Numbered from the stretch's first letter, positions 51,419-57,018 are shown. The stretch is DNA of 64,000 bases from Alphaproteobacteria bacterium (GCA_025363115.1 JANYEN010000031.1:5608-69607); one strand, 5' to 3'. Notes: generated by a model not told the origin, from the sequence alone. Program-made: numbers and translations.

Positions 51419-53346
51419 TAAAAATTTTCCCGTTTATCCCTAAAACATAAGTATTTTTTTCTTGACAATAAAAACCAACAATGCACTATACTTTTAGATT
51501 AAATAAAAAGTATATGAAAAACATAACAATTCAGCAGTTTTTTAAGAAGTTTTCAAGTGATGAGATATGCTTAGAACATGTAATGAAATCAAGATATGGA
51601 ATGAGCGGAACTTGTCATCACTGCGGAAAAGAAACAAAATATTCAAGAGTTAAAAGCCAAAGAGCTTTTGCTTGTCAATGGTGCGGACATCATGTTTACC
51701 CTTGCGTTGACACACCTTTTCATAACTCAAAAACATCTTTGCAGTTATGGTTTTATGCAATCTATTTATTTAGCACAACAAGACACGGCGTACCAGCAAA
51801 AGAACTTGAGCGTCAGTTAGGTGTTACTTACAAATGTGCATGGCGTATGGGTCATGAAATACGTAAGCATATGAGTGATGTGTAAATGGAAACGATAAAT
51901 TAAGCGGTATTGTACAAGTTGACGAGACCTATGTAGGTGGCGAGCAACAAGGCAAGCGTGGGCGTGGTAGTGAAAATAAAACCATTGTTTTTGCAATATT
52001 AGAAACTGGAGGTAATATAATTGCTGAAGTTGTTGACGATGTTAAAAAAGCTACTTTGCAACCAATTATTGAAGCTAACTTTGAAAAAGGCAGTGAAATT
52101 CATAGCGATGAGCTACGTTCTTATAAAGGACTTGATCAAAAAGGTTACGAACACGAAACAGTTAATCATTCAGCTGGTCAATATGCAGACTTGGTAACTG
52201 GTTGCCCTGTAAACGGTGTTGAAAACTTTTGGTCGCATTTGAAAAAAGCAATCAATGGAACTCACGTGCATGTATCAAAAGAATACTTAGCAAATTATGT
52301 TGCAGAGTTTGAATACAGATTTAACTTTCGTCAAGCTCCTCAGTTGATGTTTGATGAGCTAATTTCTTCTTTTTCTTCGGTTGATAAGGTTTCTTGGGTT
52401 GAGCAGGCGGAATAACTGGTTTTGAAACCATTGATTTTATTGTATTGTCAATCGTTTCTTCGTCTCCATCGTTTTGCTTTTTGTGTTCTTTTATGAACTC
52501 TTGCATTGCAAGTGGGTCTTTTAGGGCTTGTTTAAGGGTGGTCATAGTTAAGGAATATAAGGATTAATGATAATTTTAATTTTACTATCCTTGATATCAA
52601 AATCTCCTTGTATTGTAAAATCAATATAATGTATATATCCGTCTATTAAAGGACCAAAAATACTTTGGATTCCTAAACATTTTAGGGTAAAGTTAGTTAT
52701 TTTATCTATAACTAATGCCTCTATTTTACCAGTTTGCCTGTAGCAGGAATTTTAAAATGTATAACAATCCCTAGTTCGGTAGATACAAAACTATTATCCT
52801 CATTTCTCACACAAAAAGCGCGTCCCAGTTTAAAAACGCAACATTAGGTTGTTTCTCCAATATATCTGCATGTAAGTTAGGTATTCCATAGAAGTTTGTT
52901 TCACTATATCTGGTGAGGTCTTCAAGAGATGTTAAAGGAAATGGTTGTTTTTCTTCATTTTTTTTGTAGATATATTATTAATGGCTTCTATTATTTCAGT
53001 TTTTACATCTTTAGTAGTGAATTATTTTTGTTGTATTTTTTCTACTTACTAGGCATTTAACTAATAATCCAGCTAATAAAAACTATAAAAAATTGGGCTA
53101 AAAATTGCCATAAAAACACATCCAATCATACCACTAAAAATAAGAATCCTACCGAACTATTTTTCATGGTTTTCATAAAAATTACAAATTTGAGCAATGA
53201 ATGATATATTTGACTCAGTTTTTGAGATTGACAACATTCATATTTACAAATAAAATTAGTTACAAATTTTTTGAGAATGACGTATCTTTTTTATTTTCAA
53301 TGTAAATTAATGCTTGTGCTTTAGGGATAAACGAGAAAAATTATTA
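51419..53346 (+). mobile_element. IS1595-family insertion sequence (about 1.9 kb) with imperfect terminal inverted repeats
   Basis: The left end at 51419-51451 (TAAAAATTTTCCCGTTTATCCCTAAAACATAAG) is the inverted complement of 53313-53346 (CTTGTGCTTTAGGGATAAACGAGAAAAATTATTA). About 29 of 34 positions match by hand. An ISXO2-like transposase lies inside. I found no target-site duplication. Confidence 0.6.
51481..52415 (+). pseudogene. IS1595-family (ISXO2-like) transposase, interrupted by one frameshift near 51879-51885
   Basis: The N-terminal Zn-ribbon (CHHCGKE...CQWCGHHVYPC) runs in frame 1 to the stop at 51885. Translation continues in another frame as VNGNDKLSGIVQVDETYVGGEQQGKRGRGSENKTIVFAILETGGN...IHSDELRSY...VENFWSHLKKAINGTHVHVSKEYLANYVAEFEYRFNFR. 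Confidence 0.75.
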
Positions 53347-53489
53347 CAATCATAATAAGTAATGATTTTTTTGTAAAAGAGTTTTGGTATAAATTTATGC
53401 AGTTCTATAATATTCATAGTTCTCAAAAAATCAAATAAATGCTGTTTTTATTATCCACTATTGTTAATAGGTGGTATTTTACTTTTTAA

Positions 53490-53519
53490 TTGACATTATA
53501 TTGAAATAAACACTAATAT
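53490..53519 (+). promoter_or_regulatory. candidate sigma-70 promoter of the 1107-aa gene
   Basis: TTGACA (53490-53495), an 18-nt spacer and TAATAT (53514-53519). It ends 35 nt upstream of the ATG at 53554. Confidence 0.4.
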
Positions 53520-53553
53520 TAATTCATGTGGTTTTATTAATTTTATTGAACCT

Positions 53554-56500: not shown

Positions 56501-56877
56501 ATACACGTCATGATTGGGCACTCCTTAAATTAGATAAACCAATTGGTAATAATTTAGGATGGTTAGGTGCTCAATGGATATCAGGAATAAATGCATATGA
56601 AGGATCAAAAGCTACTGTTACTGGTTATGGTCAAAAAACATTACCTATGTATACTCATACTGATAGCATTATTTCTAGTCAAATACCAGAATTTCTTTAT
56701 TATTTAGTAGATACAGTAGAGGGTACAAGTGGCGCCCCTATATACAGAAAGAGAACCAATCGTGTTATTGGAATACATACAATGTCAGTTTCACCAAGAT
56801 CATGTAATGCGGGCATACGCATAACAAAAACTTTGTTTAATATTATTTGTCGAGTTAGGAATTTTGTGATACCATAA
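53554..56877 (+). CDS. large modular protein: 2 x LRR-like repeat modules, Ig-like/beta-sandwich modules, C-terminal trypsin-like (S1B-type) serine protease
   Basis: 1107 aa. Two repeats of about 135 aa cover aa 61-190 and 208-345 (Y.IN.DLTID..G...L.....I.Y.PYKFN.I...F....CNL.SL.N.P..V.G.F......ANPGIFT..DI..TG). Two Ig-like modules share a WQ...P....W pattern, at about aa 350-452 and 718-835. The protease triad candidates are TWGH(940)NIY, HD(987)WALLKLD and EGTS(1059)GAPIY. There is no N-terminal signal peptide. Confidence 0.7.
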   Translation: MSEHKQNLPQSPTKLERTQKNLKNETKIELNGQARQKYLENMNSWLQNIANLKPSINNQPGYTINNDLTIDVKGTIDLTGKDIRYLPYKFNKITNDFLISGCNLESLNNSPNEVGGKFQCCNNHLTSLEGIENMKVKGNFEYIFYPAWSLPAILVNDHIDGNPGIFTSQDITNTGCQVEGIVRGYSLQQKQKQKDKIKNWIDSVLRVWSYIINEDLTIDITGDVNLENVNIKYFPYKFNRIRGNFYANNCNLKSLKNTPYNVEGDFCVNGNFLIDFEYSPKFVWDYQCLNNQIKSLKGLEDVFILYDFIYVKSRDSTANPGIFTEDDIRKTGANIQEKVYAYSKQEKQATLHPEDVVALIGEEAYFTILNLNLEPNETIRWQYRPANSLESDPWIDLNDQNGHHKGTHTGQLVVTSSFTQLNNNGDEYRAVFSDKKTKTAPILSNSSILHLENIAAEDIVEVNLPSFNFDSTTSVTVNAGQSIKLNPTTFPAFVENGSFSIEYKFGELSEWLTIQNLIRLDAGENSSYSSSNAFGQIIFKNAGPHLVSVSGVINTGRPMSLKINAFNVANNTASHNISYALKIDVLGIEEAYLKTRFGSWGEGTDPEKMNYNTYSEITLHVGNKIWLDGSITAGTDQIKIEYKYDLYQKWLPLENSSLSIIDGKIDFVTRGSIGYYYTELIDTFITPPRTMFLKLSSKYYNHYCTHVLIIHVSGIFAITENLPDITELPNGTSEAVMAVNFTEGYEASIQWQVKPSLGDWTIITDGTIPSNLSSLSLTYAGATEKELKISRIGPQHENFSFKAIVTKIPRPKKIDNKALLSPVISVSKSTTLKFFSLPERAIIPIGMKIVNGYPSPADILPTAGFTNDLNYTSFNPYKPDSIPSHRMIVGGTDDREIVTNYNDFPYSCIFYMRMYKKNSPGFGNGTGFLISKDTILTWGHNIYDCEKKEYRGNFEFSSASPSAIITAKVIGVWVDEEYIATGNTRHDWALLKLDKPIGNNLGWLGAQWISGINAYEGSKATVTGYGQKTLPMYTHTDSIISSQIPEFLYYLVDTVEGTSGAPIYRKRTNRVIGIHTMSVSPRSCNAGIRITKTLFNIICRVRNFVIP

Positions 56878-56930
56878 GTTACAAATATCGCTACAATAAT
56901 ATACGCTATGAAGAAAATTATATTATAATT

Positions 56931-57018
56931 ATTAAATATATTTTGTATTTAATCTAAAAATATAGTAGATTGTTGGTTTTTATTGTCAAAAAAAATACTT
57001 GTGCTTTGACGGTAAATA
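56931..57018 (-). repeat. inverted 88-bp fragment of a second IS1595 copy (left end plus first ~50 nt of the transposase gene)
   Basis: The reverse complement of 56931-57018 aligns to 51430-51520. The aligned stretch includes TTGACAATAAAACCAACA followed by ATCTACTATATTTTTAGATTAAATACAAAATATAT, against ATGCACTATACTTTTAGATTAAATAAAAAGTATAT in the full copy. Identity is roughly 80 percent by hand. Confidence 0.7.

Follow-up and report, generated by a model that had tools for sequence, protein, structure and literature searches.

Compound transposons such as Tn10, Tn5, and Tn9 hold a gene segment between inverted insertion sequences (ISs) whose outer ends point outward, and islands of the tyrosine-integrase type that enter tRNA genes reportedly use, as set out by Williams in 2002, a crossover in the anticodon stem-loop. 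As described in PMC3129680, the IS1595 family includes "transporter IS" copies that carry passenger genes (Siguier, Gagnevin & Chandler 2009, cited therein). The same source regards partial IS copies and solo inverted repeats as the scars that ancestral events leave behind. Here we analyzed a 64,000-nucleotide stretch of DNA (hereafter the window) from an alphaproteobacterium (GCA_025363115.1, JANYEN010000031.1:5608-69607), in which a 5.6-kb block at 51419-57018 had been predicted to be a composite-transposon-like unit enclosing an IS1595 transposase gene and a gene for a 1107-aa protease. Our findings indicate that this "composite" is probably a fossil, left by a pair of IS copies within an island that had earlier targeted a tRNA gene, rather than a mobilizable unit. 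The composite reading is only partly supported, in that its geometry is borne out but its mobility and its account of how the protease gene arrived are not.

The locus is composed of the following features, with positions given in window coordinates.

50788-50838, minus strand: displaced, decayed 3′ half of tRNA-Ile(GAT), from the anticodon stem to CCA; distal att-like direct repeat
50839-51421, no strand: distal island segment of 0.58 kb, non-coding or decayed and with no gene recognized, between the displaced tRNA half and the left inverted repeat of the IS
51422-51460, plus strand: left inverted repeat (IRL) of the IS, recognized from an inverted-repeat pair and from contig breaks at 51422
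51514-52415, plus strand: IS1595-family transposase gene (Pfam and NCBIfam), encoding about 300 aa once repaired
52321-52545, minus strand: conserved small open reading frame (ORF) of 74 aa (MTTLK...FIKEH...), with homologues in the same place and on the same strand in relatives
52548-52974, minus strand: decayed cargo (passenger) gene, frameshifted at least twice and terminated 2 nt upstream of the point at which the small ORF begins
53304-53342, minus strand: right inverted repeat (IRR) of the IS, 82% complementary to the IRL, with a tip at 53335 by the family rule
53554-56877, plus strand: orphan gene for the 1107-aa protein (Pfam Trypsin; PDB 1p3c; N-terminal repeats)
56936-57016, minus strand: left-end relic of a second, inverted IS copy (BLAST; three-way alignment)
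57035-57111, minus strand: intact tRNA-Ile(GAT) (ARAGORN; Rfam tRNA, 71.7 bits), integration target and proximal island boundary

The outermost boundaries of the inserted DNA are formed by tRNA sequences rather than by IS ends. A BLAST comparison matches 57032-57082 to 50788-50835 in direct orientation with 86.3% identity over 51 columns (4 mismatches and 3 gaps; E 7.8e-08). Alignments reveal that this identity runs from CCA back into the 5′ arm of the anticodon stem and is then sharply lost. The displaced half is followed, after 16 nt, by the yidC start codon. The two nearest relatives recovered (contig L087, YidC 63% identical; contig L091, YidC 42% identical) have tRNA-Ile(GAT) immediately upstream of yidC, and both preserve an empty site at which the tRNA ends 15-20 nt before yidC. 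In the window, by comparison, the intact tRNA is now 6.2 kb from the displaced half on the yidC side, and the insertion comprises 50839-57034. Furthermore, the spacer beside the displaced half aligns with the tRNA-yidC spacer of L087, and the flank of the intact tRNA enters the IS relic. The motif CAGACCC is common to the displaced half and L087, and the intact tRNA carries CGGACCC at this place. The tRNA and its displaced half are thus the footprint of site-specific integration of an island into a tRNA gene, and the tRNA-yidC synteny in relatives, coupled with the displaced half, makes this old integration recognizable despite the loss of an integrase.

This arrangement shares several characteristics with known tRNA-integrated islands. 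The insertion abuts the intact tRNA 3′ end, a distal direct repeat extends from the anticodon stem to CCA, relatives retain an empty site, and the cargo is an orphan gene plus mobile-element debris. The locus differs from such islands in having no detected integrase, in being merely 6.2 kb long, and in carrying a distal repeat that is 14% diverged, a divergence that marks the island as an old, immobilized remnant. We also considered duplication of a whole tRNA gene with its promoter, given the shared TTAATTGTCAA (repeat D20), and rejected it because the 5′ halves are at chance similarity and the junction is sharp. The two relatives used for synteny were reached through YidC homologues and contig look-ups; a scan of genomes for YidC returned solely Hyphomicrobiales/Bradyrhizobium loci with 32-33% identity, which were of no use for this purpose.

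The original prediction named three related IS-end sequences in the block: a left end, an inverted partner that closes a 1.9-kb IS, and an 88-bp inverted left-end fragment. All three are present far beyond chance at about the proposed positions, with boundaries shifted by 3-5 nt, and the two left ends do point outward. For the third sequence, the existence of a truncated second copy is upheld and its length is revised to about 81 nt. The reverse complement of 56936-57016 aligns with 51433-51515 at 85.7% identity over 84 columns (E 7.7e-18), with a core of 74 columns at 87.8%; these and other BLAST statistics for the relic and the IS come from public contigs identical to the source sequence compared with the window. 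In agreement with this alignment, a repeat search recovered an inverted 60-nt match at 90% identity (51456-51515 versus 56936-56995). The 21-mer TTGACAATAAAAACCAACAAT occurs in the window only at 51462 (plus strand) and 56969 (minus strand), and was matched in 0 of 100 dinucleotide-preserving shuffles.

The relic retains the inner IRL, a promoter-like TTGACA region, and the 5′ untranslated region as far as the ATG at 51514 that starts the transposase gene, where the similarity ends. Its aligned edge is 18 nt from the tRNA-Ile 3′ end, which is consistent with the 16 nt counted previously from position 57018. Preservation along the relic is uneven, with identity at 54 of the inner 60 nt and at only 9 of the terminal 17 nt. 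The relic reads TTTACCG where the family-invariant core is TTATCCC, and the outer tip, which should fall at 57020 or 57027, has degenerated. The tip of an IS is the part that the transposase must use for cleavage. Like the IS scars described in PMC3129680, the relic is a partial copy in which one end is retained. It departs from them in that about 60 nt internal to the left end survive and preservation is poorest at the extreme tip.

The resident 1.9-kb IS is a member of the IS1595 family by virtue of its transposase domains and flanking terminal inverted repeats. A repeat search pairs the IRL and IRR over 39 nt each, and the match lengthens to 65 columns at 81.5% (E 2.8e-07) when the window is examined by BLAST. 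The IRR 21-mer CGTTTATCCCTAAAGCACAAG is found in the window at this site, in the IRL with two mismatches, and nowhere else. The transposase matches Zn_ribbon_IS1595 (PF12760, E 3.2e-07) and DDE_Tnp_IS1595 (PF12762, E 1.7e-45, 153 of 153 profile positions), and scores above the curated cut-off of the NCBIfam model NF033547 transpos_IS1595 (E 1.6e-65). As had been noted, the gene is frameshifted once. The single lesion is two extra nucleotides (TA at 51883-51884) that lead to a stop codon, and the homologues in relatives are encoded by one unbroken ORF. Programmed ribosomal frameshifting of the kind used by IS1 was considered and rejected, given the lack of a slippery motif, the unbroken ORF in relatives, and the nature of the lesion as a 2-nt insertion.

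Related IS loci were collected by scanning metagenome contigs with the repaired transposase (80 loci; protein identity of at most 63%). In seven related elements, the end motif G[A/T]TTATCCC shortly precedes the transposase gene, and an inverted copy of it follows that gene at 0.8-1.2 kb. This gives the elements a length of 1.7-2.2 kb, and their right ends lie at a distance past the transposase gene similar to that in the 1.9-kb IS of the window. Perfect 8-bp target duplications flank three of them, on L007 (AATAAAAA), L011 (TTATTTTA), and L016 (TTTTTATC), which places the element tip 3 nt before GATTATCCCC. The tips defined in this manner are GGTGATTAT (L016), CCCGATTAT (L007), and CGTGATTAT (L011), and the corresponding sequences in the window are CCCGTTTAT and CTCGTTTAT. 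For the IRL, position 51422 is the repeat boundary in assemblies and the tip by the family rule is 51429 (CCCGTTTATCCC). With the family-rule tips, the flanks of the IS (AAAATTTT and AAAAATTA) agree at 6 of 8 positions, which is not significant for flanks composed only of A and T. With boundary tips at 51422 and 53342 they agree at 1 of 8. Thus, there is no convincing 8-bp target duplication around the resident IS.

The same logic can be applied to the 5.6-kb block as a whole. Its flanks agree at 3 of 8 positions (AAAATTTT versus TTAAAGGT) or 4 of 8 positions (TGATTTAA versus TTATAAAT), so that no 8-bp target duplication surrounds the block in either tip register. Its left end is intact, and its right border is the relic with the eroded terminal 17 nt, which leaves the block without two usable ends. 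The cis copy of the transposase gene is broken. Although the block resembles compound transposons in holding a gene segment between inverted IS sequences with outer ends outward, it has one IS plus an approximately 81-bp relic with a degenerate terminus, and it has no target duplication, no intact cis transposase, and no known second site. The unit was not seen at other sites or in other genomes in a search whose genome collection does not include the source genome: the 1107-aa protein was found only on contigs L001 and L002, both of which are collinear with the window. Furthermore, the protease gene lies outside the IRR and is read in the same direction as the transposase gene, whereas the cargo genes of relatives are on the opposite strand and abut or overlap a small ORF. 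The block therefore does not resemble the usual manner in which this IS clade carries cargo.

Contig breaks in assemblies of the same sequence, which exact-protein look-up located in GCA_043762065.1 and three SRA assemblies, reveal that the backbone of the resident IS is not unique in the source samples. The breaks fall at 51421/51422 and 52546/52547 with k-1 overlaps, where k = 31 (contigs L001, L002, L003, L004, L088, and L089). NCBI contig L001 and Logan contig L003 have 51422 as their first base, and Logan contig L089, which bears yidC, stops at 51451 (51422 plus k-1). At the other break, L003 and L004 stop at 52546 and L002 begins at 52517. With k = 31, these breaks imply that 51422-52546 is a repeat with differing flanks on either side, and hence that the samples contain one or more additional copies of the IS backbone. 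This copy parts from the window exactly between the stop codon of the decayed cargo gene and the start codon of the small ORF. Of the claim that the block could be mobilized, then, the outward-pointing ends and the existence of another backbone copy stand, but the degenerate relic tip, the lack of an 8-bp duplication, and the restriction of the block to this one locus do not favor it. Present-day movement would need a transposase supplied in trans that also recognizes a badly degenerate end, which is unlikely.

The anatomy of the locus suggests how it might have formed. An integrative element may first have recombined with the segment of tRNA-Ile(GAT) between the anticodon stem and the 3′ end, when this gene was still upstream of yidC. 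The new 3′ half supplied by the element would have kept the tRNA intact (57035-57111), and the native half, displaced by 6.2 kb, would have stayed at yidC and decayed. The protease gene most likely entered as cargo of this island, and we consider the island insertion to be a better-supported arrival route for the gene than the composite block. A passenger-carrying, ISNwi1-like IS, whose anatomy is evident in the window, would then have inserted about 0.6 kb from the distal island end, and a second copy would have inserted, in inverted orientation, 7-14 nt from the tRNA. Subsequently, a deletion might have removed the integrase gene and nearly all of the second IS copy, leaving the left-end relic of about 81 bp with its mutated tip. 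The resident IS is itself decaying: its transposase gene has a 2-nt insertion, its cargo gene is frameshifted, and no clean target duplication is seen.

Several points weigh against this reconstruction. A comparison of ORFs and fragments of at least 28 aa from 50839-51425, 52540-53560, and 56870-57040 with Pfam at E ≤ 10 recovered neither an integrase gene nor a remnant of one, so that the case for the integration mechanism is built on the att-like repeat and on relatives with empty sites. The tRNA-proximal end, the usual place of an integrase gene, is taken up by the IS relic. The relatives with empty sites are distant, as their YidC identities demonstrate, and the timing and order proposed above are tentative. 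The protease gene could also postdate the arrival of the island. Regarding mobility, at least one extra IS backbone copy makes a trans-acting transposase conceivable. The left-end 21-mer TTGACAATAAAAACCAACAAT had no exact match among 185,579 species-representative genomes, a collection that includes neither the source genome nor its close relatives.

Among the other explanations for the second left end is the possibility, which we regard as unlikely, that the inverted copy was made locally, either by intramolecular replicative transposition or by recombination or inversion between ISs, such that the 3.6 kb in between became bracketed, or was turned around, where it already lay; the IS would then have neither brought this DNA in nor carried it out. 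The two copies do lie in inverted orientation around a chromosomal segment, and IS-mediated rearrangement predicts a resident IS that lacks clean target duplications. However, the divergence of 12-14% between the relic and the resident left end means that the two are not recent sister copies. In addition, only one end of the second copy survives. To our knowledge, the transposition chemistry of the IS1595 family is not established.

A once-active composite transposon might instead have carried the protease gene to its position beside tRNA-Ile, with later deletion of the right-hand copy down to its outer end and decay of both ends. We judge this scenario to be quite improbable. Its left end would lie 0.58 kb from the tRNA-half repeat that bounds the entire insertion, and a separate integration event would be required anyway. 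While the two outward left ends are real and significant, the flanks matching at only 3 or 4 of 8 positions contain no 8-bp duplication, and the relic tip is degenerate at family-invariant positions. Similarly, this IS clade habitually bears non-transposition genes between its ends, and more than one backbone copy exists in the source samples, but the cargo of relatives lies opposite the transposase strand at the small ORF, whereas the protease gene is on the same strand and beyond the IRR. Neither the block nor the 1107-aa protein was found anywhere else in the searches described above. Finally, the notion that the similarity at 56936-57016 is a chance match in AT-rich DNA carries negligible weight: although many short two-copy repeats arise by chance in a genome with about 27-30% G+C, the alignment is highly significant (E 7.7e-18), the 21-nt exact match never arose in 100 shuffles, and the similarity is collinear over 81 nt including the inner IRL.

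The protein encoded by the orphan gene terminates in an S1B (glutamyl-endopeptidase-like) serine protease domain. Residues 924-1087 match Pfam Trypsin (E 5.5e-07), and residues 889-1095 match the glutamyl endopeptidase in PDB entry 1p3c (E 6.5e-14). The N-terminal third (53554-54600) contains two copies of a unit of about 148 aa with a 444-nt period, and the DNA repeats D1-D4 in this region are 71-85% identical. The middle region has no database match. No full-length homologue was found among 5.8 billion proteins, which returned short, weak N-terminal matches only. These matches span 5-10% of the 1107-aa protein, and one of them carries a PcfJ-domain annotation. By eye, the protein shows no signal peptide.

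Within the resident IS, about 0.9 kb separates the transposase stop codon from the IRR, and this interval holds the 74-aa ORF and the decayed cargo gene. The small ORF converges on the transposase gene and overlaps its 3′ end. Homologous ORFs occur on contigs in the range L007-L048; those on L007, L010, L011, L012, L016, L021, and L033 are 49-69 aa long and agree with it in both position and strand, and tblastn detects such an ORF beside the transposase gene in about 25 of the 80 related loci. This ORF, which has no Pfam or PADLOC match, is a component of the IS backbone. The decayed gene persists as minus-strand ORF fragments at 52810-52974, 52724-52843, and 52551-52751, and its reconstructed 148-aa product has no Pfam match. 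It occupies the place of the variable cargo genes of relatives, whose intact products are 135-315 aa in length. Seven relatives share the order IRL, transposase gene, small convergent ORF, one or more unrelated cargo genes on the small-ORF strand, and IRR. We also considered 52510-52546 as a cryptic right end of a 1.1-kb IS and rejected this assignment because only CCCTAAAA is common to the IRL. Given the backbone/cargo junction in relatives, the right edge of the assembly repeat is read as this junction rather than as a cryptic IS end.

From this gene content, the resident element is predicted to be a passenger-carrying "transporter" IS of the ISNwi1 type. Like elements of this type, it encodes a transposase with a zinc ribbon and a DDE_Tnp_IS1595 domain, has terminal inverted repeats, and carries extra genes before the right end, and its relatives produce 8-bp target duplications. 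The ISfinder end motif of the type, ggnnatTAT, would accommodate the tips on L016 (GGTGATTAT) and in the window (CCCGTTTAT). Elements of the ISNwi1 type are 1.1-1.75 kb long, and those of the clade examined here, at 1.7-2.2 kb, are somewhat longer. The copy in the window differs from the type in being defective, with a transposase frameshift, decayed cargo, and no clean target duplication.

The junction between backbone and cargo is a recurring characteristic of the clade. Many pairs of metagenomic elements exhibit 77-89% nucleotide identity from the IRL through the small ORF (about 1.05 kb), after which similarity disappears at one fixed point. This point is located about 112-136 nt past where the transposase match stops, with thousands of bases still to come. 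For example, L012:4927-6796 and L033:4927-6753 are 89% identical over 1046 nt, fall to background from the small ORF start codon onward, and are again 90% identical only in the last 29 nt, which form the right end. Other elements with the same fixed loss point include those on L018, L020, L022, L023, L024, L031, and L037, and the second backbone copy in the source samples of the window diverges at this same junction (52546/52547). Between the backbone and the IRR, where similarity resumes for the last ~30 nt, the cargo is unrelated from element to element, a pattern that looks like a slot with exchange of cargo at a fixed junction. In related elements, the upstream cargo gene always shares the orientation of the small ORF, whose start codon it abuts or overlaps. 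Most of 51 cargo proteins have no Pfam or PADLOC family. A few match candidate defense or toxin families, namely PDC-S42 (E 5.7e-93), PDC-S45, fused type I methylase/specificity proteins, a CapP-like M78 peptidase, and PemK. Such cargo ORFs lie beside the transposase gene at L007:1109-2056 (minus strand) and L016:5970-6491 (minus strand), as well as on L065, L070, L077, L058, and others.

Additional observations concern the surroundings of the locus. On L091 (186-1669 and 1839-1915), the tRNA-Ile gene upstream of yidC is preceded by a 181-aa IS1595-family transposase fragment and a gene with a Bro-N domain, and in more than one lineage mobile DNA seems to be drawn to the neighborhood of this tRNA. 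Beyond tRNA-Ile in the window, a 659-aa gene (57173-59152, minus strand) has a weak, below-threshold match to a prepilin-type N-terminal methylation motif and no Pfam or NCBIfam family. Its product is rich in Ala, Ser, and Asn, its G+C content is 0.36-0.38 compared with a local backbone of about 0.27, and it may be another acquired gene. Another IS scar lies in the gap between an ORF ending at 41444 and the next, starting at 42206. Here the NCBI contig identical to the window is annotated with 99 aa of an unrelated, fragmentary transposase (DDE_Tnp_1_3; about 41575-41874, minus strand).

Genes for tRNA-Ala(TGC) and tRNA-Ile(GAT) usually reside within the 16S-23S spacer. In the window, tRNA-Ala(TGC) (18940-19015) is 38 kb from tRNA-Ile(GAT) (57035-57111), and a scan with Rfam recovered these two tRNAs and nothing else, including no rRNA. 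These split tRNAs fit a genome of the Rickettsiales-like kind, in which the components of the rRNA operon are dispersed. The best named matches to YidC, from Rickettsiales, Midichloria, and other uncultured Alphaproteobacteria (37-40% identity), agree with this, and we describe the host as a Rickettsiales-like alphaproteobacterium that is uncultured and AT-rich. When the region was scanned for promoters and terminators, the counts were not above those for shuffled sequence.

The elements of this locus are of known kinds, specifically a tRNA island, a transporter IS, and a partial IS scar, and in this sense the locus is of modest interest. Nonetheless, its annotation should be corrected. The protease gene should not be called transposon-borne or currently mobilizable, and the locus is better termed a degraded tRNA-Ile island that contains a passenger-bearing but defective IS together with the partial scar of a second copy. 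As a tentative proposal that we hold with considerable doubt, ISNwi1-like elements could be modular gene shuttles, in which a backbone of about 1.05-1.13 kb and a conserved right end remain constant while cargo is exchanged at the start codon of the small ORF. A weaker reading would regard the 5.6-kb block as a snapshot of cargo capture by means of a surrogate outer end. We found no description of the small convergent ORF and fixed cargo junction in the literature searched, the scope of which did not extend to the 2009 IS1595 paper or ISfinder. If a dedicated exchange mechanism exists, it would amount to a cassette system inside an IS. Regardless, this IS clade bears on how insertion sequences acquire and swap accessory genes, including candidate defense genes.

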